Source: Corallococcus exiguus (GTDB lineage Bacteria > Myxococcota > Myxococcia > Myxococcales > Myxococcaceae). From it: a stretch of 64,000 nucleotides of DNA. Each line of letters begins with the position of its first letter. Within the stretch, counting starts at the first letter, position 1. The notes beneath the pieces are model-generated. The model worked only from the letters and a program-made list of their open reading frames with translations. It was not told where the DNA came from and ran no database searches. A program made the translations under genes and the position numbers. Shown here one piece after another: positions 1,637 to 29,472 of the stretch. The stretch lies in contig NZ_JAAAPK010000002.1 in the NCBI RefSeq assembly GCF_009909105.1, forward strand, positions 349,827-413,826, in the 5' to 3' direction.

Positions 1637-2809
1637 TCATGGTCGATGCCTCCACCCGAGGTGGCCGGGTGCCAGGGGACTCATTCGCGCCGAGTTCGGC
1701 GTGTCCAAAGGGACACCACGCAGGCCGATGCTCCAGCGGAAGGCCCGATTCCTCTCCAGGAGGAGGTAGAGGCCCAGGGGCCCCATCAGCCCTCCGAACA
1801 CGCCCAGCGCCAGGTGCAGCGCGAGCGGCGCTCCTGGCAGCACCTTTCCCAAAGCCAGCCTCACTCCGGACACGAAATAGATGTGGAAGAGGTAGAGCGG
1901 CATGCTGATCGAGCCCAGGTAGACAATCCACCTCGCCAACCCCTTCCACGTCGCACCCAGGCTCCGGGCAACACCCAGGAGGAAGAAGGCCAGGGTGAAT
2001 TGCAGGCAGAAGCCCAGCGGCCCCGTGATCAGGCGCGGATCCAGATGCCCCTCCGCGAGCCCCGAGACATGGAAAGAGACCAGCAGCCCCAGGAACCCCG
2101 AGGGCACCAGTCCCTGGAGCGCCAGAGGCAACTGGGACAGCCGGGTGCGCGCCAGCGCCAGCCAGGGGGACAGGCTCATTCCCAGACCGAAGAGGCAGTT
2201 CCAGAAGAGGATGAAGCGGAGGTATCTCATCCCAATGTCAGACATCGGAGATTCCAGGAGCTCGACAGCGGCATACGACAGCCAGGACAGTGCCAGGTAG
2301 CTCAGTCCGTTCCAATTGTACCGGGCGGGCACGATGCGCTGATACACCCACGCCAGACAGGTACAGCCCACCAGGGCGTGAATGAACCAGAAGATGGCGT
2401 ATGGAGGGAACCAGGCGGCAGGGAACCGGCCCAGCAGCGCCAGCCATCCGCCAGGTGTTCGCGGGCGCGCCTGGGTGAGCTCATGGGCAAAGAGGAAGAC
2501 GGGCGCCCACACCAACATCGGGACGACGAGCTTGCGCAGCTTCTTGTGCGCGAACTCCCGGAAGGACCTGTCCGGCGCGCCGAAGAGTGACACCGCCACG
2601 CCCGAACCGATGATCATCACCGCCATGTTGAAGCTGTGGATGAACTCCGAGGCGAACCGGAGCTCCGCTCGCTCCGGGGAGAAGAGCTTGCGCACCCCCT
2701 GGAAGGGCTCCACGCCGATCACATGGACCAGCACCACGAGCATCAGGCTCATGCCGCGGACGAAGAACAGTTCCTCGGAGAGTGTCTTGCGAATCACCGG
2801 CTTGCGCAT
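1637..2809 (-). CDS. Acyltransferase family 3 (OafA/NolL-like) integral membrane protein
   Basis: 390-aa polytopic hydrophobic protein. The N-terminal EELFFVRGMSLMLVVLVH and overall architecture are typical of acyltransferase_3. True start may be an internal Met. Confidence 0.6.
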   Translation of the reverse strand: MRKPVIRKTLSEELFFVRGMSLMLVVLVHVIGVEPFQGVRKLFSPERAELRFASEFIHSFNMAVMIIGSGVAVSLFGAPDRSFREFAHKKLRKLVVPMLVWAPVFLFAHELTQARPRTPGGWLALLGRFPAAWFPPYAIFWFIHALVGCTCLAWVYQRIVPARYNWNGLSYLALSWLSYAAVELLESPMSDIGMRYLRFILFWNCLFGLGMSLSPWLALARTRLSQLPLALQGLVPSGFLGLLVSFHVSGLAEGHLDPRLITGPLGFCLQFTLAFFLLGVARSLGATWKGLARWIVYLGSISMPLYLFHIYFVSGVRLALGKVLPGAPLALHLALGVFGGLMGPLGLYLLLERNRAFRWSIGLRGVPLDTPNSARMSPLAPGHLGWRHRP

Positions 2810-3092
2810 TCACATGTGTCCCACGTGCTTCCTGCTGCCTGTTCCTCCATGCAGTTATCGTGCTCCATGCTTCACGGCCTCACCGCCGGCTGATTGTCCC
2901 TGCTGTCTCATGCTGGGACGTCAGGCTGTCTCGGATTGAGAGTCCATCGAGGATGGCTCGCTCCCTCAAGAGGGTCGCCCGTCTTGGCTGTCCAGGGTCG
3001 AAATGAGGGGCCGTCCCCGAAACGGACGAGCAGGACTCGAAGGCCCGGATTGAGCTGCCGCTGGCTGGAACGGCAATTGCTCGGTCAGGCTC

Positions 3093-19254: not shown

Positions 19255-19312
19255 GTTTCCGGCCCCGGTGGGCTCCGCGAAAGCGGGGCGCCCGGGGCCG
19301 GAGTCTTTTTCA
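19255..19312. terminator. Bidirectional rho-independent terminator (GC-rich hairpin + T-run)
   Basis: ccggccccggtgggctccgcgaaagcggggcgcccggggccgg followed by agtcttttt, between convergent groEL2 and the histidine kinase. Confidence 0.45.
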
Positions 19313-20839
19313 GGAAGCGGTCTTCTTGAAGGCCAGGCCCAGCTCGCGGCTGAGCGCCGTGGTGTCGGAGAGCAGCTTGGGCAGGCACGCGGCGGCCCCG
19401 GCGCGCAGCGACGCCAGCGCCGTGTCCATGGTGAGGTGCTCGGCCAGGACGACGAAGGGCGCGCCCTGGCTCAGGGCCCGGGCCAGCTCCAGCGCCTTCT
19501 TGCCGTAGGCCGGCGCGAAGTCCCAAGACACCACCACGCCCATGGGCGGCTCCATGGTGGCCACCTCCGCGCCCGCGACGACGCGCGCCTCCAGGCCCAG
19601 CAGCGTCAGCGCCTCTGAAATCAGCCGCGCGGTGGCCGGGTTGTCCTCCAGCACGTCCACCCGGCGCACGCCAGCGCTGGGGGCGGGGACAGGCGGCGCG
19701 GCCGGTGTGTACAGCGCCTGCCGCAACAGCGCGCGCACCTGGCGGATGTCGTCGAAGGGCTTGAGCAGGTAGTCCACCAGGCCCAGCTGCAGCGCCTGCT
19801 GCGTCGTCACCAGCGAGGGGTAGCCCGTCATCAGGATGACGCGCGACGCGGGATCCAGCTTCCGCGCGTGCTGGGCCAGCTCCAGGCCGGAGATTCCGGG
19901 CAGGTTCTTGTCCGTGACGATGAGGTCCACGCGCGACGAGCGGAGGATTTCGAGCGCGGCCTCGCCCGTGGCCGCTTCAATGACTTCGCACTCCTTGTCC
20001 ATCAGGTCCTTGAAGACCATCCGGATGATGCCCTCGTCGTCCACCACCAGCAGGCGCTTGCGCGGCGGGCGCGGCGCGTCCGTGGGCGGGAAGAGCACGC
20101 GGAACACGGTGGCCGGGGGCGGCACTTCGCGCAGCGTCGTGGGCGGCACCAGGGCAATCTGCGCGTGGTGCTCCTGCGCGATGCGACGACAGACGGCGAG
20201 CCCCAGGCCCGTGCCGCGTTTGCTGGCGGAGACGTAGGGCTCGAAGATGCGCGTCTTCAGCTCGTCCGGGATGCCCGGTCCCCAGTCGGACACGTAGAGG
20301 GCAGCGGAGGCGCCATCGCGCGTGAGCGTCACCTTCACGCGGCCCCGGCCGGACATGGCATCGCGGGCGTTGTTGAGCAGGTTGAGCGTGAGCTGCTCAA
20401 TCAGCCGCGCGTTGCCCTGGATGGTCAGGTCCTCGGGGGCCTCCACCTCCAGTGAGATGCGCGCCGAGTCCGGGTTGACGCTGAACACCTTCGCCGCCGC
20501 CCAGATGGGCGCGGCCAGGGACAGCCGCTGCTGCGGGGCCGGCCGCTCGCTGGCCAGGCGGATGAAGTCGGAGACAATCTGCTCCATCCGCTCCACCTGC
20601 GCGAGCAGCAGCTTCAGCGGGCCGCTGGAGCCTCCTTCCTCGGCGAGCAGCTGGGCGTAGGCCTTCGCGCCCAGCAGGGGCTGGCGCAGCTCGTGGAGGA
20701 CCTCCGCGGCGACCTGATGGGTGTGGGCGTTGGCGCGTTGCAGCGCCACGGCCGCGACCCGTGCCTTCTCCAGGTCCCCCGCGTCCAGGGCCTGGAGCAG
20801 CTGCGCGAGCGGCGAGGGGGTCTCCATGCGCGGGAGCAT
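19310..20839 (-). CDS. Hybrid sensor histidine kinase (HisKA-HATPase_c + receiver + second receiver-like domain)
   Basis: H-box region (HELRQPL), G-box (GTGLGLAV), and a receiver with LLVVDDE...DLIVTD...KP. Confidence 0.75.
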   Translation of the reverse strand: MLPRMETPSPLAQLLQALDAGDLEKARVAAVALQRANAHTHQVAAEVLHELRQPLLGAKAYAQLLAEEGGSSGPLKLLLAQVERMEQIVSDFIRLASERPAPQQRLSLAAPIWAAAKVFSVNPDSARISLEVEAPEDLTIQGNARLIEQLTLNLLNNARDAMSGRGRVKVTLTRDGASAALYVSDWGPGIPDELKTRIFEPYVSASKRGTGLGLAVCRRIAQEHHAQIALVPPTTLREVPPPATVFRVLFPPTDAPRPPRKRLLVVDDEGIIRMVFKDLMDKECEVIEAATGEAALEILRSSRVDLIVTDKNLPGISGLELAQHARKLDPASRVILMTGYPSLVTTQQALQLGLVDYLLKPFDDIRQVRALLRQALYTPAAPPVPAPSAGVRRVDVLEDNPATARLISEALTLLGLEARVVAGAEVATMEPPMGVVVSWDFAPAYGKKALELARALSQGAPFVVLAEHLTMDTALASLRAGAAACLPKLLSDTTALSRELGLAFKKTAS

Positions 20840-20995
20840 GGCGGAGGCAGGTGTTCACGCGCAACGCACCCCCAGCGGGATTCGGTTGACCGCGCTCGCG
20901 ACCGAACGGATGCTCGCGCACGTCCTCCAGCCCGGCCTGACGGAACGTCGTTGCCCGCTCGCCTGTTGGGGACTCTCCCTGTCGCTGAGGTCCTC

Positions 20996-21385
20996 ATGCC
21001 GCAGACGAACCCGTTCCACTCGCTGGTGCCCCGGAAGCTGACGGACTCCGAACTGGCCCGCTCCATCCGGCTCAACATCGAGGCGGAGCTGGACGCCATC
21101 AACCTCTACGCCGCGCACCTGGACGCGACGGACAACGAGGAGGCGAAGGCCATCCTGCGGCACGTCATGGACGAGGAGCGCGAGCACGCGGCCCTCTTCT
21201 GGCAGCTCATCGCGCGGTTGGATCCGGAGCAGGCCCAGCACGACCGCGAGGCGTCGCAGAAGTACCGCCTCATCACCACCGGCGCGTCTCACGAAGAGGT
21301 GGAGGCGGTGGGCGAGGGCGGCGGCGGCGTGCCCGCGGAAGTGGAGCTGCCCAAGCACCTCACCGTGGGCAGCCTGCGCAAGTAG
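20996..21385 (+). CDS. Ferritin-like encapsulin cargo protein (EncC-like) with C-terminal targeting peptide
   Basis: Ferritin-like/EncFtn-like core (ELDAINLYAAHLDATDNEEAKAILRHVMDEEREHAALFW). A Gly-rich linker precedes the terminal LTVGSLRK, which matches the encapsulin cargo-loading peptide consensus (xxGSLxx). GAGG RBS 6 nt upstream. Confidence 0.6.
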   Translation: MPQTNPFHSLVPRKLTDSELARSIRLNIEAELDAINLYAAHLDATDNEEAKAILRHVMDEEREHAALFWQLIARLDPEQAQHDREASQKYRLITTGASHEEVEAVGEGGGGVPAEVELPKHLTVGSLRK

Positions 21386-21399
21386 CGCGCGTCCGGCGT

Positions 21400-22788
21400 T
21401 CAGCCCTGGCCCTGCGGGGGCGGGGGATTCTGACGGCGCTCGGCCGGGGTGGCTTCCAGGTCCTGCGCCGCCATGTAGACGACGTTCCGGGTGCCGCGCT
21501 TGCCCCGGTACATGGCCCGGTCGGACAGGTCCAGCAGGTGGTCCTTGTCCTGGGCGTGCTCCGGGAAGCTGGCCACGCCGATGCAGGTGGTGAGCTTGAG
21601 CGCCAGCCCCTCGCGGCCCAGGAACTGATGGGTCTCCATGGTGCGGCGGATGCGCTCGGCGACCTTGAGGGCCCCGCCGGAGTCCGTGCCGCGCAGGAGC
21701 ACCACGTACTCGTCACCGCCGAAGCGCGCCACCACGTCCGGGTCGCGCACGCAGCCCTTGAGCACGCGCGCGGCCTCCACCAGCACGCGCGAGCCCACCA
21801 GGTGCCCGTGCGTGTCGTTGATGGCCTTGAAGCGGTCCAGGTCCAGGAACAGCAGGGAGAAGGGGCGCTCCGTCTGCAGGGCCTCGTTCACCTCGCGGTC
21901 CAGCACCAGGTGCAGGTAGCGCGTGTTGAACAGGCGGGTGAGATCATCGACGTAGGCCAGGTCCTCCACGGCGGCGAAGCGGCCCAGGTTGCGCAGGGCC
22001 AGCGCCCAGTTGCGCACGAGGAAGCCCACGGTCTCCGCGTGGTGCTCCGCGGGCGCGTTGTCGTGGAAGAGCACCGCGTGGCCCAGCACCAGCTCGCCGT
22101 CCACGGCGGGGAAGGAGAGGGTGCGCGGCCAGGGAACTTGAAGTCCGTCGAGCTCCACCTGCGTGCGCGTGCCCGAAAGCCGCTCGATGAGCAGCGGGAC
22201 GAGCGCCTCGTGCAGGTCCACCGGCAGCCCGCGCATGCCGTGCGAGCGGAAGCCCGTGCCGCCGGGGTCCCGCTCCAGGAGCATCACCGCGGAGGCGTTG
22301 GCCATGGACTCCAGCGCGTCGGACGCGGCCGTGGACAGCCGCTCGCGGTCGAGCGTGGTGGCGATGCGCTGGCCCGCCTCCAGCAGCGCGACGTGCTGGC
22401 GCAGGGACGCGTTCTCACGCATCAGGTCGCGCGTGGTGAGCGCGCGGCGCAGCGCGTGCTCCAGGGCCTCCGGCGCCACGGGCTTGACCAGGTACTCCGC
22501 CGCGCCGCTCTTGATGGCGCGCACCGCGGGGGCCACCTTGTCCAGGCCGGTGATGACCAGCACCTCCACGCCGGGGTAGCGCTCGCGCACGTGGCGAAGC
22601 ACCTCCATGCCGTCGCCGCCGGGGAGGATGAGGTCCGTCACCACCGCGTCGAACCGCGCCGCGGAGAGGGCTGCCTTCGCGTCCGCCACGGTGGGCACCG
22701 CCGTGACCAGGTGTCCCGCGGCCGTGAGGTAGTCGCCGTAGAGATTGCGGGCGATCTTTTCGTCGTCGACGAGGAGCAGTCGCGCCAT
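21400..22788 (-). CDS. Response-regulator diguanylate cyclase (REC - GAF-like - GGDEF)
   Basis: Receiver (LLLVDDE...D in VVTDLILP), and a C-terminal GGDEF domain with RFGGDEY (GG[DE]EF) and RYL/DxLT motifs. Confidence 0.75.
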   Translation of the reverse strand: MARLLLVDDEKIARNLYGDYLTAAGHLVTAVPTVADAKAALSAARFDAVVTDLILPGGDGMEVLRHVRERYPGVEVLVITGLDKVAPAVRAIKSGAAEYLVKPVAPEALEHALRRALTTRDLMRENASLRQHVALLEAGQRIATTLDRERLSTAASDALESMANASAVMLLERDPGGTGFRSHGMRGLPVDLHEALVPLLIERLSGTRTQVELDGLQVPWPRTLSFPAVDGELVLGHAVLFHDNAPAEHHAETVGFLVRNWALALRNLGRFAAVEDLAYVDDLTRLFNTRYLHLVLDREVNEALQTERPFSLLFLDLDRFKAINDTHGHLVGSRVLVEAARVLKGCVRDPDVVARFGGDEYVVLLRGTDSGGALKVAERIRRTMETHQFLGREGLALKLTTCIGVASFPEHAQDKDHLLDLSDRAMYRGKRGTRNVVYMAAQDLEATPAERRQNPPPPQGQG

Positions 22789-23653
22789 GACTGTTCAGGG
22801 CTTAGCACCCAACGCTGGAAGGCTGCTAGGGTCCCGGGCCGTGCCCTTTGAAAGCGGACGGCGGCTCTGCCTGCTGGTGGAGGCCGGAGAGACGCGCTAC
22901 GCGGTGGAGGCCACCTCCGTCATCGAGGTCGCGATGCCGGGCGCTCGCGGCGCGAGTCTGCGCGGCGTACTGGAAGTGAAGGACCTCGCCGCGTTGCTCG
23001 GCGGCCTGCCTGAGGAAGTGCCGGGCATGGTGGTGGTCCTGGACGTCAGCCCCACGCTCGCGGTGCGGGTGCGCGCCGTGGTGGAGGTCGCGGACGTCGC
23101 GAGGGATCCGTTCTTCCTGCTGCCTCCGGGCCTGGCGGACTCGCTGGCGCCGCTGAGCCGGGGCGCGGTGCTGCACAAGGACCGGCTGTACCTGGAGCTC
23201 ATCGTGGAGGCGCTGCCGCACCGGGCGGGCCCCCGGGCGACCCCGCCGGAGCCCCGGCCCGTGCACTATGCGGACGCGCCCCCGGAGCGGGCGCTGGTGC
23301 TGGAGTCCCAGGGGGTGCTGTTCGGCGTCCCGCTGGGTTGCGTCTCCCAGGTGGTACCCCGGGGCGAGGCGTTCAGCGTGCTCCCGGTGCAGAGCGGGCC
23401 GGTGGCGGGCGTCTATCCCCACGCGCAGGCGCTATGGCCCATCTGTTCGATTCCAGCGCTGCTGGGTGCGCCGGCCCAGGCGGAGGAGCTGTTCGTCCTC
23501 ACGGAACTGGCGGGGCGGAACGTGGGGCTGGCGGCCACCCGGGTGCTTGGTGTGCTGCAGAAGTTCAAGCCGGCCGAGCTTCCCGGAACGTTCCGGGCGC
23601 CGGGGCTGCCGGATCCGGTGATGTTACTGGACCTGCAGCGCATGTTTTCTTGA
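22787..23653 (+). CDS. Tandem CheW-like domain protein
   Basis: Two CheW-like segments (RRLCLLVEAGETRYAVEATSVIEV... and ERALVLESQGVLFGVPLGCVSQVV...). Start uncertain (the ORF table starts at 22745). Confidence 0.5.
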   Translation: MTVQGLAPNAGRLLGSRAVPFESGRRLCLLVEAGETRYAVEATSVIEVAMPGARGASLRGVLEVKDLAALLGGLPEEVPGMVVVLDVSPTLAVRVRAVVEVADVARDPFFLLPPGLADSLAPLSRGAVLHKDRLYLELIVEALPHRAGPRATPPEPRPVHYADAPPERALVLESQGVLFGVPLGCVSQVVPRGEAFSVLPVQSGPVAGVYPHAQALWPICSIPALLGAPAQAEELFVLTELAGRNVGLAATRVLGVLQKFKPAELPGTFRAPGLPDPVMLLDLQRMFS

Positions 23654-23770
23654 TCGGCCCAACGCGCGAATCCTAAGCTTCTCCGATTGACACAGGGCGT
23701 GCAGGCAGGCTTGCTCGCCCGAAATCTCAAACGAATTCAGGGGGGTATGCGCCCCCCGAGGCCGGAGCCG

Positions 23771-25033
23771 ATGCCCAAGAATCTACTGATCGCCGACGAC
23801 TCGCTCACCATCCGCAAGGTGATCGGGATGATCTTCGCGACGGAAGACTTCCAGGTGACCGCGGTGGACAACGGGCTGGACGCCATCTCCCGCACGCGCG
23901 AGCTGCGTCCGGACGTGGTGCTCGCCGACGTGATGATGCCGGGCAAGAGCGGCTACGAGGTCTGCGAGGCGCTCAAGGGCGACCCCTCCACGCAGGCCAT
24001 CCCGGTGCTGCTGCTCGCCGGCACCTTCGAGGCGTTCGACGAGAACCGCGCGAAGGCCGCCCGGGCGGATGACCACATCACCAAGCCCTTCGAGAGCCAG
24101 ATCCTCCTCGACAAGGTGAAGGCGCTGGTGGGCCAGAAGTCCAACACGATGCCCGCGTCCGCCGCGACGCGCATTCTGCCCCAGACCTCCGCCCCGAGCG
24201 CTCCGGTCAGCGCGCCGCCCGCCGCCGCCGTGCCGCCGGGTGCGCGTCCCGCGGGTGCGCCGCCTCCGGGCGCCATGCCGCCGGGTGCGCGTCCTCCTCC
24301 GGGTGCGCCGCCTCCGGGCGCGCGTCCTCCGGGCGCCGGTGTGCCTCCTCCTCCGGGTGCGGCGCGTCCGCTGCCGGGCGCTGTTCCTCCGGGCGCGCGT
24401 CCTCCGGGTGCGCCGCCTCCGGGCGCCATGCCGCCGGGTGCGCGTCCTCCGCCGGGTGCGCCGCCTCCGGGCATGGGCGCGCGTCCTCCGGGTGCGCCGC
24501 CTCCGGGCGCCATGCCGCCGGGTGCGCGTCCTCCTCCGGGTGCCGTGCCTCCGGGCGCGCGTCCGCCGGGTGCGCCGCCTCCGGGCATGGCCGCGCGTCC
24601 TCCGGGCCCTGGCGCCCCGAACATCCCGGGCGGCTTCCCGCGTCCTCCGGGCGCCGCGCCGCTGCCGTCCGCGCCCCCGCCCGCCGCGGTGCCTCCGGCC
24701 GCCCGTGCCCGGGATCCGTTCGGGCTGGGTGCTCCGGCCGCCCCTCCCGCGGCGCAGGCCCGCACGGAGAGCATCCGCATCGAGGACTCGCTGCCCGAGC
24801 CCAGCGGCGCGGAGGAGATCTCCCTGGACATCGGCGGTCCCTCGCCGGCGACTCCGCCCGCGCGCGCCCGTCCGGCCGCGGATGGCGGAGAGGCGCTGCT
24901 TCGCGAGGCGCTGTCGAAGGCGTCCCGCGAGGTCATCGAGAAGATTGCCTGGGAGGTCGTTCCGCAGCTGGCGGAGACCATCATCCGGGAAGAGCTGGAG
25001 CGGCTCATCAAGGACCGCGAGACCCAGCATTGA
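23771..25033 (+). CDS. romR: RomR-like polarity response regulator (receiver - Pro-rich repeat linker - acidic C-terminal domain)
   Basis: Receiver domain (LLIADDSLTIRK...DVVLADVMMPGKSGYE...KP), then ~130 aa of PPGARPPGAPPPGAMPPGARPP repeats, then a Glu-rich C-terminus. This is the architecture of M. xanthus RomR, whose known neighbours it shares. Confidence 0.6.
   Translation: MPKNLLIADDSLTIRKVIGMIFATEDFQVTAVDNGLDAISRTRELRPDVVLADVMMPGKSGYEVCEALKGDPSTQAIPVLLLAGTFEAFDENRAKAARADDHITKPFESQILLDKVKALVGQKSNTMPASAATRILPQTSAPSAPVSAPPAAAVPPGARPAGAPPPGAMPPGARPPPGAPPPGARPPGAGVPPPPGAARPLPGAVPPGARPPGAPPPGAMPPGARPPPGAPPPGMGARPPGAPPPGAMPPGARPPPGAVPPGARPPGAPPPGMAARPPGPGAPNIPGGFPRPPGAAPLPSAPPPAAVPPAARARDPFGLGAPAAPPAAQARTESIRIEDSLPEPSGAEEISLDIGGPSPATPPARARPAADGGEALLREALSKASREVIEKIAWEVVPQLAETIIREELERLIKDRETQH
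24224..24620 (+). repeat. In-frame tandem DNA repeats encoding the PPGARPPGAPPPGAM linker of romR
   Basis: Repeated ccgggtgcgcgtcctcc(g)ggtgcgccgcctccgggcgccatgccg units seen directly. Confidence 0.55.
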
Positions 25034-25086
25034 TTCGCAGTCCCCTCTGATTCCCCGCCGGCCCCGTCGGGGGCCGGCCGCTTGCA

Positions 25087-28000
25087 ATGACTGACACGAC
25101 TGAACTGTCCAAGGCCTACGAGCCCTCCGAAGTGGAGGCGCGGTGGTACAACCACTGGCTGGAGCGCGACTACTTCCGCGCCGAAGCCCCTTCCTCCAAG
25201 CCGCCGTTCAGCATCGTGCTGCCGCCGCCCAACGTGACGGGCAGCCTGCACATCGGCCACGCGCTCACCGCGACCATCCAGGACATCCTCACGCGCTGGA
25301 AGCGGATGAGCGGCTTCAACGCGCTCTGGCTGCCGGGCACGGACCACGCGGGCATCGCCACGCAGATGGTGGTGGAGAAGGAGCTCAAGAAGACGGAGGG
25401 CAAGAGCCGCCACGACCTGGGCCGCGAGGCGTTCCTCGAGCGCGTCTGGACGTGGAAGGGCAAGTTCGGCGCGCGCATCGGTGAGCAGCACCGCTACCTG
25501 GGCGCGTCCCTGGACTGGAGCCGCGAGCGGTTCACCATGGACGAGCAGTCCTCGGCCGCGGTGCGCGAGGTGTTCGTCCGGCTGTACGAAGAGGGCCTGA
25601 TGTACCGGGCCCAGAAGCTGATCAACTGGTGCCCGTCCTGCCGCACGGCCCTCTCCGACCTGGAAGTGGAGCACGAGGAGAAGAACGGCTCGCTCTGGCA
25701 TATCCGCTACCCGGTGAAGGGCACGGAGCGCTTCCTCACCGTGGCGACGACGCGCCCGGAGACGCTGCTGGGCGACACGGCCGTCGCCGTGCACCCGGAG
25801 GATCCGCGCTACCAGGACCTCATCGGCAAGAGCGTGGCGCTGCCGCTCACCGACCGTGAGATTCCGGTCATCGCGGACGGCGAGCTGGTGAACATGGAGT
25901 TCGGCACCGGCGTGGTGAAGGTCACGCCCGCGCACGACTTCAACGACTACCAGACGGGCCTGCGCCACAAGCTGCCGATGCTGTCCATCCTGGACGAAGC
26001 GGCGCGGATGACGAAGGACACCGGCAAGTACGCGGGCCTGGAGAGCCGGGAGGCGCGCAAGCAGGTGCTGGCGGACCTGACGGAGCTGGGCCTGCTGGAG
26101 AAGGAGGAGCCGCACAAGCTGAACGTGGGCACCTGCCAGCGCTGCACCACGGTGGTGGAGCCGCGCCTGTCGCCGCAGTGGTTCATCAAGATCGAACCGC
26201 TGGCGAAGCCGGCCATCCAGGCCGTGGAGGAGGGCCGCACGAAGTTCGTCCCCGAGTCGTGGACGAACACGTACTTCCACTGGATGAACAACATCCACGA
26301 CTGGTGCGTGAGCCGCCAGCTGTGGTGGGGCCACCAGATTCCCGCGTGGTACTGCGCGGCGTGCACCCCGGCGGAAGAGCGCTCGAAGGACACGGCGGAC
26401 GTCATCGTGTCTCGCACGGCGCCGGAGTCCTGCCCGAAGTGCGGCGGCAAGGAGCTGACGCAGGATCCGGACGTGCTGGACACCTGGTTCTCGTCCGCGC
26501 TGTGGCCGTTCTCCACGCTGGGCTGGCCGAAGCAGACGGCGGACCTCCAGACCTTCTACCCGACGTCCGTGATGGAGACGGGCCACGACATCATCTTCTT
26601 CTGGGTCGCCCGGATGATGATGATGGGCCTGCACTTCATGAACGATGTGCCCTTCCGCACCGTGTACCTGCACGCGATGGTGCGCGACGAGAAGGGCGAG
26701 AAGATGTCCAAGACGAAGGGGAACGTCATCGATCCCTTGGACGTCATCCTCGGCGCGAAGGCGGAGTCGCTGCAGCCGTCCTTGCGCAACCGCTTCCCGC
26801 AGGGCATGCCCGCGCACGGCGCGGACGCGCTGCGCTTCACGCTGGCGTCGCTCACGCAGCAGGGCCGTGACATCAAGCTGTCGATGGACCGCCTGGGTGG
26901 CTACAAGGCGTTCTGCAACAAGCTGTGGAACGCCAGCCGCTTCGCCCTGATGAACATGGGCGACTTCAGCCTGGACAAGACGCCGCTGGAGGGCCGCAAG
27001 CTGACGCTGGCGGACCGGTGGATCCTCTCCCGCCTGCAGAAGGCCACCGAGGAGACGCGCGCGTCGCTGGAGGCGTTCGGCTTCGCGGAGGCCGCGTCCA
27101 CGCTGTACCAGTTCCTGTGGGCGGAGTTCTGCGACTGGTACATCGAGCTGGCGAAGGGCTCGTTGTACGGCGACGACGCGGAGGCCAAGGACACCACGCG
27201 CGCGGTGCTGGTGACGTGCCTGGACCGCATCCTGCGGCTGATGCACCCGTTCATGCCGTTCATCACCGAGGAGATCTGGCAGAAGCTGCCGATGTCCCGG
27301 CCCACGGAGAGCATCTGCATCGCGGCGTACCCGGCGCCGGAGACGGCGTGGGTGGACGCGGCCGCGGAAGGCGAGATGGCGCCGGTCATCGCGGCCATCG
27401 AGGGCCTGCGCACGCTGCGCGGCGAGAGCAACCTGCCGCCGTCCGCCAAGGTGAAGGCGGTGGTGCAGAGCCCGGACGCGACGACGCGCGAGCTGTTGGA
27501 GCGTTGGCGCGCGTACCTGATGCCGCTCGCGGGCCTGTCCGAGGTGGTGGTGGGCCCCCCGGGCGCCAAGCCTCCGCAGGCGGCGGCGTTCGTGAGCGGC
27601 AACCTGGAAATCTACGTGCCCCTGGCGGGCCTGGTGGACCTGGACGCGGAGCGCGACCGCCTGAAGAAGGAGATCGTCCGCTCCGAGCAGGAACTCACCG
27701 GTTTGCAGCGCAAGCTGGACAACCCGAACTTCGTGGCCCGTGCTCCGCCGGACGTGGTGGAGAAGGACAAGGCCCGGGTGGCGGAGCTCCAGGAGCGCAC
27801 GGTCAAGCTGCAGGATCACCTCCAGCGCATCGCCCCGGAGCCCCCCATGTCCGAGACGCCGTCGCCGTTGCCGGGCAGCACCGAGTCCGAAGCCCCTGAA
27901 GCGTCCGAGTCCCCCGCGCCCGAGAGCGCCCATGTGAAGGTGGCCACCGAGCCGCAGGCACCGAAGGACGATGCGGTGAACCTGGGCCAGGAGCTGAAGG

Positions 28001-28584
28001 GCGAGATTGAAGCCGAAGAGGCTTCGCAGGCGCCCCAGGCCGCGGATCCGGTGGTGGAGGAGGCCCTCAACAAGCTGCGCGAGGGCACCAAGGAAGGACT
28101 GTCCCCGGCGGACCACCACGACCTGGGCGTCGCGTACATGAGCATGGGCCTCGTGGACGACGCGATGCGCGAGTTCGACCGGGCCAAGGAGGGCGGCGAC
28201 GCCCGCGAGGCGCCGGAGGGTTCGGCGAAGCCGGTGAAGAAGGCCCCTGCGAAGAAGGCCTCCTCGAAGAAGGCGGCGGTGAAGAAGGCCCCTGCGAAGA
28301 AGGCCGCGGCGGTGAAGAAGGCCCCTGCGAAGAAGGCCTCCGCGAAGAAGGCGGCGAGCAAGAAGTCCGCCGCGAAGAAGGCCCCTGCGAAGAAGGCTTC
28401 CGCGAAGAAGGCAGCGGGCAAGAAGACGGCCGCGAAGAAGGCGGCGGTGAAGAAGGCTCCTGCGAAGAAGGCTTCGGCGAAGAAGGCTTCGGCGAAGAAG
28501 GCGGCGGGGAAGAAGACCGCCGCGAAGAAGGCCGCGGCGAAGAAGACCACTCGGGGCAAGCCGGCTCGCAAGGCGCGCCGGTAG
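25087..28584 (+). CDS. valS: Valine--tRNA ligase with ~280-aa C-terminal extension (acidic linker + histone H1-like AKKA repeats)
   Basis: HIGH ([13 protein letters not shown]) and KMSKS ([13 protein letters not shown]) motifs, editing domain, and a C-terminal coiled coil (up to ...LQDHLQRIA at ~aa 885). An E/P/S-rich segment, one TPR-like helix pair, and a [17 protein letters not shown] repeat tail follow. Confidence 0.9.
28234..28584 (+). repeat. Tandem DNA repeats encoding the Lys/Ala (AKKA) tail of valS
   Basis: Repeated gcgaagaaggcc(c/t)ctgcgaagaaggc units seen directly. Confidence 0.55.
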
Positions 28585-28587
28585 GAG

Positions 28588-29472
28588 GTGGAAGTGCAGC
28601 AGGATTATCTCGATCGGCTCATCGCGCTGTCCCTCGACGAGGACCTGGGTGCTGCGGGGGACGTCACCTCGCTGGCGGTGGTCCCCGCCGAAGCGGAGGG
28701 CAGCGGTGAGCTGGTCGCGAAGGAGCAGATGATCGTCGCCGGCCTGGACGCCTTCGTCCGCGTCTTCCACATGGTGGACGCGGAGGTGGAGGTGGAGGTC
28801 CTCAAGCGCGACGGCGAGGAGATCAAGCCGAAGGTGGTCGCCGCGCGCGTCCACGGCAAGCTGCGTTCGCTGCTGGCCGCGGAGCGCACGGCGCTCAACC
28901 TGGTGCAGCGCGCCGCCGGCATCGCGACGCTGGCCCAGCAGGCGATGACCTCCGTGCGAGGCTCGAAGCTGCGGGTGCTGGACACGCGCAAGACGCCGCC
29001 GGGCATGCGGGGCCTCGCGAAGCACGCGGTGCGCATGGGCGGCGCGTCCAACCACCGCTTCGGCCTCTTCGACGGCATCCTCATCAAGGACAACCACATC
29101 GCGGCGGTAGGTGGCGACATCACCGAAGCGGTGCGCCGCGCGAAGCTGAACGGTCCCCGGCTGGTGAAGATTGAAGTGGAGGTCACCAACTTCAAGCAGC
29201 TGGAGGAGGCCATCGCCGCGGGCGCGGACGTCATCATGTTGGACAACATGGACGACGCGCAGATCCGCGAAGCGGTGAAGCTGACGGCGAGCCGCGTGCC
29301 CATCGAAGTGTCGGGCGGCGTCACGTTGGATCGGCTGCCCCGGCTGGCGAAGCTGGGCGTGGACTTCGTGTCGATGGGCGCGCTGACGCACTCGGCGCGG
29401 GCCATGGACCTGTCGCTGGAGATCGCGACGACGAAGAAGTCCACGCGCAAGCCCCGCTCCGCGCAGGGCTGA
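28588..29472 (+). CDS. nadC: Nicotinate-nucleotide pyrophosphorylase (quinolinate phosphoribosyltransferase)
   Basis: Typical NadC length (294 aa) and conserved blocks (LDTRKTPPGMRGLAKHAVRMGGASNHRFGL, ILIKDNHI, IMLDNM). Confidence 0.85.
   Translation: MEVQQDYLDRLIALSLDEDLGAAGDVTSLAVVPAEAEGSGELVAKEQMIVAGLDAFVRVFHMVDAEVEVEVLKRDGEEIKPKVVAARVHGKLRSLLAAERTALNLVQRAAGIATLAQQAMTSVRGSKLRVLDTRKTPPGMRGLAKHAVRMGGASNHRFGLFDGILIKDNHIAAVGGDITEAVRRAKLNGPRLVKIEVEVTNFKQLEEAIAAGADVIMLDNMDDAQIREAVKLTASRVPIEVSGGVTLDRLPRLAKLGVDFVSMGALTHSARAMDLSLEIATTKKSTRKPRSAQG

Follow-up and report, generated by a model that had tools for sequence, protein, structure and literature searches.

This analysis concerns the valyl-tRNA synthetase (ValRS) gene valS, and above all the C-terminal extension of its product, in a 64,000-nucleotide stretch of Corallococcus exiguus DNA (contig NZ_JAAAPK010000002.1, positions 349,827 to 413,826), which is referred to below as the window and in which all positions are numbered. 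A first, sequence-only reading of this DNA had proposed that the reading frame continues past the coiled coil of ValRS into an acidic linker and a histone H1-like tail, and this continuation is borne out: the open reading frame (ORF) 25087..28584 runs uninterrupted through a ValRS core (amino acids, aa, 1-915) and an in-frame extension of 250 aa (aa 916-1165), in which three parts can be distinguished, namely an acidic linker, a small helical domain and a lysine-rich basic tail. The features of the gene, with the evidence that delimits them, are as follows.

25087..28584, + strand: valS, 1165 aa including the extension, stop codon TAG at 28582-28584
27637..27831, + strand: C-terminal coiled-coil tRNA-binding arm, aa 851-915 (Pfam Val_tRNA-synt_C, AlphaFold 2 (AF2), short orthologues)
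27832..27849, + strand: fusion junction Ala-Pro-Glu-Pro-Pro-Met, aa 916-921 (comparison of junction DNA)
27832..27981, + strand: acidic Pro/Glu/Ser-rich disordered linker, aa 916-965 (composition, AF2, conservation profile)
27982..28191, + strand: conserved four-helix domain resembling tetratricopeptide repeats (TPR), aa 966-1035 (AF2, invariant columns, TPR searches)
28192..28581, + strand: Lys/Ala/Pro-rich intrinsically disordered basic tail, aa 1036-1165 (composition, AF2, Pfam HC2)
28232..28545, + strand: degenerate tandem DNA repeat with a 15-nt unit (5 codons) encoding the K/A repeats (Tandem Repeats Finder, TRF)

The core is a ValRS by every membership test applied, whether on the catalytic core, on the anticodon domain and coiled-coil arm, or on equivalog scores. 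Pfam assigns tRNA-synt_1 to aa 20-599 (E=1.3e-150), Anticodon_1 to aa 643-792 and Val_tRNA-synt_C to aa 851-915, the class Ia catalytic signatures HIGH and KMSK stand at aa 55 and aa 539, and the NCBIfam ValRS equivalogs all score above their cut-offs (given in brackets), with 1137 bits for TIGR00422 (612), 1255 for PRK05729 (704) and 1816 for PRK14900 (1783). PRK14900 models a long-form ValRS of 1044 positions, so long ValRS proteins are already recorded in annotation resources; its profile positions 3-1020 align with aa 1-1104 of the present protein, and the extension alone matches positions 900-1020 with 60 bits. Since the Pfam domain limits place the arm at aa 851-915, the canonical enzyme ends at about aa 915 (nt 27831); AF2 predicts the helices of the arm at 852-878, 880-885 and 888-914, with a predicted local distance difference test (pLDDT) score of ~85-92, and short orthologues terminate exactly at the end of the coiled coil (...SRI*). 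The sequence-only reading had recognised the canonical coiled coil correctly but had ended it at about aa 885, and its start at 27700 corresponds to aa 872, inside the coiled coil, whereas the extension proper occupies 27832..28581. In the Thermus ValRS-tRNA complex, the coiled-coil arm is said to touch the tRNA elbow, a finding that goes back to Fukai and colleagues in 2000.

The ValRS of the window is 99% identical to the Corallococcus exiguus ValRS represented by a 1164-aa protein (a cluster of 33 sequences), and the extensions of Corallococcus are 238-257 aa long, with strain differences that take the form of in-frame insertions and deletions (indels). All close homologues have 1035-1332 aa, and they come from Corallococcus, Myxococcus, Pyxidicoccus, Citreicoccus, Stigmatella, Hyalangium, Melittangium, Archangium, Aggregicoccus and many metagenome-assembled genomes of Myxococcaceae; several of the long-form homologues lie on contigs of 9-10 Mb, and, counting from where the coiled coil ends, ~90 of the best 120 homologues have a tail of the same layout. 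The translated loci of related genomes agree with this. The ValRS of Bdellovibrionaceae, Acidobacteriota, Aminicenantes and Proteobacteria, by contrast, ends at the coiled coil, and the suspicion that the tail might be lineage-specific has thus proved right.

It has to be asked whether the extension is an artefact or a non-functional read-through, in which a frameshift in sequencing or the loss of a stop codon has pulled a meaningless repeat into the ORF. Such an origin would fit the stop codon that certain orthologues have after the coiled coil, and also the ability of tandem repeats like those encoding the tail to grow by slippage. It is opposed by the same in-frame architecture in ~100 independently assembled sequences, by the high in-frame GC content at third codon positions (GC3; 0.85-0.96 in all three parts of the extension, against 0.965 in the core), by the invariant residues of the helical domain, by charge properties that are kept across wide divergence, and by the preservation of the frame in the indels between close strains. 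On the assemblies, the GC3 and the frame-preserving indels, a frameshift or a two-gene artefact was rejected, and the artefact reading is extremely improbable and close to refuted. Codon choice can be added as an observation: the lysine codons of nt 28201-28581 are AAG in 45 of 45 cases, and the core uses 50 AAG and no AAA. An Rfam search of the extension returned no family, and on its + strand, up to the downstream gene nadC, no terminator and no promoter-like site was found. That the repeat region might hold an RNA element or a gene on the antisense strand was also considered and rejected, the Rfam result being empty and the minus-strand ORFs 27816..28571 (251 aa, FFAAAFF...) and 23953..29391 (1812 aa) being shadow ORFs of a coding strand of ~70% GC.

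The linker deserves the description as acidic and Pro/Glu/Ser-rich that it had been given, since aa 916-965 contain 11 P, 8 E, 7 S and no R; in the full-length AF2 model its pLDDT is 30-42 (aa 921-986), and the net charge of aa 916-1040 is -18, compared with -13 for the whole ValRS core. Within this otherwise hypervariable segment, aa 949-953 (27931..27945) form a short stretch that is conserved, V-K-(V/I)-A and then P, ~10-15 residues ahead of the first helix; in the clade that carries RIAPVEVKIAPP it comes immediately after the coiled coil, and it may be a docking motif. The helical domain that comes next was modelled with AF2 both in the full protein (72 homologues) and in the extension alone (59 homologues). 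In the full-length model the core is confident to residue 914 and helices are seen at 988-1000, 1007-1019 and 1023-1035 with pLDDT 56-78, while the extension alone yields helices at 966-980, 988-1002, 1007-1019 and 1023-1035 in a block with pLDDT 73-96, the remainder being disordered. Because the confidence rises when the extension is modelled alone, the domain is predicted to fold autonomously, independently of the ValRS body. The last two helices form the TPR-like hairpin that had been described as a single helix pair, a description that holds for the hairpin and falls short of the four helices predicted by AF2 across aa 966-1035. Its Pfam scores are below threshold (TPR_2 16.7 bits against 27, TPR_14 16.8 against 23.5, TPR_1 12.4 against 27.8); a phmmer search of the full library with aa 940-1047 matched 5-10 repeats in each of a series of ordinary multi-TPR proteins, and in Foldseek ~30 residues overlay individual TPR units, from MamA and from consensus TPR proteins, at 0.5-0.9 A, with none reaching E < 0.6. 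Across 22 diverse sequences, free-standing modules included, 16 columns of the domain are invariant, and by this alignment it is the best-conserved piece of the extension.

The basic tail (130 aa) consists of 45 K, 46 A, 8 P, 5 R, 2 E and 1 D among other residues, contains five copies of KKAPAKKA and ends in ...KARR. Its pLDDT is 25-31 (aa 1037-1165), aa 1041-1165 have a net charge of +47 and an isoelectric point of 11.8, and it is the sole K-rich stretch in any frame of the window. That tandem DNA repeats encode it is confirmed by TRF, which finds a 15-nt period in ~20.7 copies with 76% match. The likeness to histone H1 that had been attributed to the tail stands as far as its anatomy is concerned, Pfam HC2 being passed, if barely, at aa 1048-1162 (45.5 bits and 40.4 bits against a cut-off of 40); the NCBIfam H1-like models, however, fall far short (hist_H1_lk_Burk 46-50 bits against 80, histone_lik_HC2 32-36 against 135). 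The likeness is therefore compositional, and the HC2 score itself mirrors composition because models of this type are of low complexity. Searched alone, the tail retrieves mostly the C-terminal tails of actinobacterial HU (HupB/HupS of Mycobacterium and Streptomyces), together with tails on PhaF-like proteins, DksA-type zinc fingers, SWIB and RHH proteins, ribosomal L22 and L17, and RsfS, from which it follows that such tails occur on DNA-associated as well as on ribosome- or RNA-associated proteins. A common ancestry of the K/A tail with these matches was rejected, since the carriers are unrelated and the likeness is one of composition, which leaves analogy; a sequence search of solved structures with the tail likewise gave only compositional matches, to K/A stretches of a sigma factor and of eL14. 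As a side observation, aa 1020-1156 weakly match NCBIfam PRK13808, a long-form adenylate kinase (profile positions 177-316 of 335), a hint of K/A tails on further housekeeping enzymes in some bacteria.

What is kept among homologues was surveyed by charge in 89 fused homologues that carry the helical motif. In 89/89 the linker has a negative net charge (-3 to -29, median -8) and the tail a positive one (+9 to +68, median +41; length 27-264 aa; ~0.37 charge per residue), and the two charges covary (r = -0.47). Most tails have ...KARR at their C-terminal end, and the repeat sequence itself is not conserved; in clades without the helical domain (the Archangium/Melittangium type, loci L012, L013 and L015) an acidic stretch and a basic tail are nevertheless retained. 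From the conserved charges, the unconserved repeats and these clades, it follows that constraint acts on the small folded domain and on the pattern of charge, and a constraint on charge pattern of the kind suggested by these comparisons is typical of a functional disordered region and not of junk.

Comparison of related loci, which share the gene order CheW, Pro-rich response regulator, valS and nadC, places the module in three states, in which it is fused to valS, encoded by a separate gene between valS and nadC, or absent (for the P0124, P0126 and P0153 contigs the comparison used gene tables alone, and locus L083 was left out as a frameshift-ridden assembly). The fused state is that of the window and of most relatives, and when metagenomes were scanned for the helical motif, 28/28 resolvable loci proved to be fused, with nadC next wherever the contig reached it. 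The split state takes several forms. At L012 and L013 valS ends with ...NLSRI* at 918 aa and a 134-140-aa ORF, starting MSERTPEEM... and ending in a K/R-rich tail, fills the gap to nadC; these free ORFs lack the TPR-like domain, and L015 has the equivalent fused to valS. (The free ORFs, L012 5770..6192 and L013 5759..6163, have a Met/Gly-rich low-complexity N-terminal part, MGGMGGGMGG..., before the Arg/Lys-rich tail.) At L082 the valS stop overlaps the start (GGAGGCATGATG) of a 156-aa TPR-like and basic protein, and on the P0153 contig (24.7 kb) 31 nt separate a valS of 925 aa from a module gene of 172 aa, behind which nadC lies. The absent state is found at L084-L088, where with the same synteny a 918-934-aa valS abuts nadC. 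L081 (JGI Ga0351829_12250335) has at 1824..2852 a free module gene of 342 aa between the Pro-rich response regulator and nadC, with a TPR-like domain and a basic R/K/P-rich tail and no valS alongside, on a contig present in two samples. The relation between the fused and the split state can be read at the junction itself.

Window, fused: ...ATC GCC CCGGAGCCCCCC ATG
L012, split: ...ATC TGA CCTGGAGGAACG ATG
L015, fused sister: ...ATC AAG CCGGAGGGAACG ATG

These junctions align base for base, such that Ala916-Met921 of the window corresponds to the stop codon, the 12-nt Shine-Dalgarno (SD) spacer and the start codon of L012; the position of the former stop is the sense codon Ala916 in the window, the internal ATG (Met921) lies at 27847-27849, and the free-standing modules start at exactly the equivalent of Met921. 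The pattern PE..M is kept in 61/103 fused homologues, deep branches included, within a hypervariable linker, and one large fused clade lacks both the pattern and its Met (RIAPVEVKIAPP). It follows from the base-for-base homology that the tail is a semi-autonomous accessory protein joined to ValRS, and, judged by these alignments, the extension is a modular unit evolutionarily equivalent to the small gene between valS and nadC. Orthologues with a stop codon after the coiled coil, which the sequence-only reading had named as a finding that would make the tail a separate gene, do exist in small number (L012, L013, L082 and the P0153 contig), though such a stop is found neither in this genome nor in the ~100 fused forms nor at the 28/28 metagenome loci; on this comparison, the few split orthologues reframe the idea of a fusion and do not refute it. 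In a neighbour-joining (NJ) tree of the ValRS core (132 sequences) the fused forms are deep and the short and split forms are nested in several clades, which hints that repeated fission and loss fits better than repeated fusion, an NJ tree not being decisive.

We read the extension as a genuine, translated and lineage-specific accessory module whose tail would act as an arm for polyanions, with tRNA or RNA bound in cis as the most likely case, and to this joint reading we assign a probability of about 0.5. The disordered K/A/P tail would serve as an electrostatic arm that takes up polyanions independently of sequence, and, by analogy, it is most likely a non-specific binder of tRNA or RNA; binding in cis would raise the local tRNA concentration and lower the Km. 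The acidic spacer would probably tune or mask the tail, and the helical domain would provide a protein contact, by docking to ValRS or by self-association, that keeps the module with ValRS and would allow the split versions to act in trans. The ligand is likeliest to be tRNA or RNA because the arm emerges directly after the coiled coil that contacts the tRNA elbow, and capture of tRNA or RNA is favoured because the carrier is a tRNA enzyme, because the module is joined to it by fusion or by translational coupling, and because there are Lys-rich eukaryotic precedents. The Lys-rich appended domains of yeast ValRS and GlnRS are auxiliary non-specific tRNA binders in cis, which are described as absent in the bacterial relatives (PMC3306390), and human LysRS bears a disordered N-terminal tRNA-interaction domain (PMC6213541). 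Both roles that the sequence-only reading had suggested, enhanced tRNA capture and nucleoid tethering, are plausible.

Several points weigh against this reading. A literature search found no paper on a myxobacterial ValRS extension in the library covered, and comparison of the helical domain with known tRNA-binding folds, including the oligonucleotide/oligosaccharide-binding (OB) fold, gave no match. The closest compositional relatives of the tail are mostly DNA-binding (HU, AlgP/PhaF-type, Hc2), and for this reason DNA is as much favoured as tRNA. Several related lineages (L084-L088) do without the module, and its function need not be specific to ValRS, because at L081 it has no adjoining valS. 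The AF2 output, finally, has no inter-domain contacts, so that docking onto ValRS is a proposal.

Known systems resemble the module in different respects. The yeast ValRS and GlnRS and human LysRS domains share with it a disordered Lys-rich extension on a complete synthetase, ValRS included, and it is to these that the module may be functionally closest, tRNA binding by the module being presumed by analogy; they are N-terminal, however, whereas the myxobacterial extension is C-terminal, bacterial and without sequence homology to them, and has in addition H1-like K/A/P repeats, an acidic spacer, a TPR-like domain and a separate-gene state. AlgP, PhaF, Hc1/Hc2, the Burkholderiales H1-like proteins (BpH1) and the HupB/HupS tails share composition, repeat style (AKKA/PAKK here versus KPAA), disorder and charge with the present tail, but they sit on nucleoid, polyphosphate (polyP) or polyhydroxyalkanoate (PHA)-granule proteins whereas the carrier here is a tRNA synthetase, and the likeness is probably convergent low complexity. 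Trbp111, Arc1p, EMAPII and the C-terminal domain of bacterial MetRS represent a tRNA-binding module that is either free or fused to the C terminus of a synthetase, which matches the fused and split pattern (see PMC11286949 and PMC4394549); Trbp111-type modules are nonetheless OB folds that recognise the tRNA elbow, whereas the myxobacterial module is a helical TPR-like domain with a disordered tail, the Pfam tRNA_bind (OB fold) search of ValRS gave no match, and AF2 of the extension gave only helices and disorder. From the same phylum, the C-terminal domain of Myxococcus xanthus CarD (HMGA-like, and H1-like in other myxobacteria) is also an unfolded appendage on a folded protein, acidic at first and then with basic repeats, and it enhances activity through nucleic-acid binding (PMC4374960); CarD is, however, a transcription factor with AT-hooks in the DNA minor groove, and has neither a TPR-like domain nor homology to the module.

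The resemblance to nucleoid proteins raises the alternative that the tail is an H1-like DNA-binding element by which ValRS, or the module when free, is fastened to the chromosome, which could serve the spatial organisation of translation factors or moonlighting regulation. Such a tether would account for the passing HC2 score (45.5 bits against 40) and for the HU tails of Mycobacterium and Streptomyces as best matches, and it has parallels in the KPAA tails of AlgP and PhaF, which bind DNA (PMC9239181), and in CarD, where an acidic segment precedes a basic disordered DNA-binding region in the same layout (PMC4374960) and where, in a passage that refers to its reference 5, H1-like domains are stated to replace the basic region functionally (PMC4374960). 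The NCBIfam H1-like scores far under cut-off nevertheless reduce the likeness to composition, the module's genetic partner is a tRNA enzyme, beside whose tRNA-binding arm it lies, and similar tails are also found on ribosomal L22, L17 and RsfS, so we consider a nucleoid tether unlikely. Polyphosphate has also to be considered as the polyanion, the blocky acidic and basic disorder then attaching the protein to polyP granules or making it phase-separate together with RNA or polyP in starvation and development. AlgP, whose tail is comparable (+55), is found at polyP granules and sets their spacing (PMC9239181), and the charges of the acidic and basic blocks covary as noted; this is analogy alone, however, and the locus has no link to polyP metabolism, its neighbours being nadC and chemosensory and response-regulator genes, so that we regard this alternative as highly improbable.

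The junction admits a further possibility, compatible with the reading as an accessory tRNA- or RNA-binding module, namely that GGAG-N6-ATG acts as an internal ribosome-binding site and that the gene yields, beside the fusion, a free trans-acting protein of ~245 aa, which might be likened to the cofactors Arc1p or Trbp111. The sequence ccGGAGccccccATG at 27836-27849, the retention of PE..M in the 61/103 fused homologues over deep clades beside an unconserved linker, the beginning of the free-standing versions at this same Met, and the predicted folding of the helical domain alone in AF2 all point in this direction; CCG-GAG, on the other hand, represents the preferred Pro and Glu codons in a genome of 70% GC, and the Met is missing from the one large fused clade with RIAPVEVKIAPP, which makes two products a possibility that we hold only tentatively. 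With somewhat greater doubt still, one may suppose in myxobacteria a bacteria-born family of synthetase cofactors, made up of an acidic spacer, a four-helix TPR-like domain and a polycationic tail, that occur free, coupled or fused, in which the SD-ATG at Met921 would yield the free ~245-aa protein beside the ValRS-tail fusion; if true, this family would be a bacterial counterpart of the trans factors of the Arc1p/AIMP type, with an H1-like arm instead of an OB fold.

No earlier description appears to exist of the extension's modular nature, of its conserved helical domain, or of the polymorphism between fused, split and absent modules, in which an internal SD-ATG is preserved. Here an essential bacterial synthetase carries a Lys-rich appendage of a sort usually presented as a eukaryotic innovation (PMC3306390), the appendage is conserved across large-genome, developmentally complex bacteria, and variants with the module fused, split off or absent occur naturally next to one another. 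This provides a ready comparative and genetic system for the role of a polycationic disordered arm on a synthetase, be it in tRNA capture, in ribosome or nucleoid proximity or in condensates, and a clean base-level case of gene fusion or fission by one stop-codon change. Annotators should leave the long valS uncorrected, and the small ORFs for basic proteins that lie between valS and nadC in relatives are real genes.

The genes around valS are as follows.

19310..20839, - strand: hybrid histidine kinase/receiver
21400..22788, - strand: receiver-GGDEF diguanylate cyclase
22745..23653, + strand: CheW-domain protein
23687..25033, + strand: response-regulator receiver with Pro/Gly repeats, the gene upstream of valS
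28588..29472, + strand: nadC, quinolinate phosphoribosyltransferase (Pfam QRPTase_N/C; conserved position after the module in related loci)

The listed start of nadC is GTG 28588, and GTG 28594 is the likelier start. A GGAGG at 28584-28588 overlaps the valS stop codon TAG (28582-28584), and this overlap, together with GTG 28594, suggests translational coupling between the valS tail and nadC, so that nadC is probably coupled to valS in this way. Upstream, the block 19310..23653 is rich in signalling genes and syntenic with valS in related loci, and the response-regulator gene precedes valS at almost all of them. After its receiver, the product of that gene has ~200 aa of Pro/Gly repeats, (PGARPPGAPP)n, with a local GC content of up to 0.85, and it ends in a conserved C-terminal helix (...EVIEKIAWEVVPQLAETIIREELERLIKDR) to which no Pfam family was assigned.

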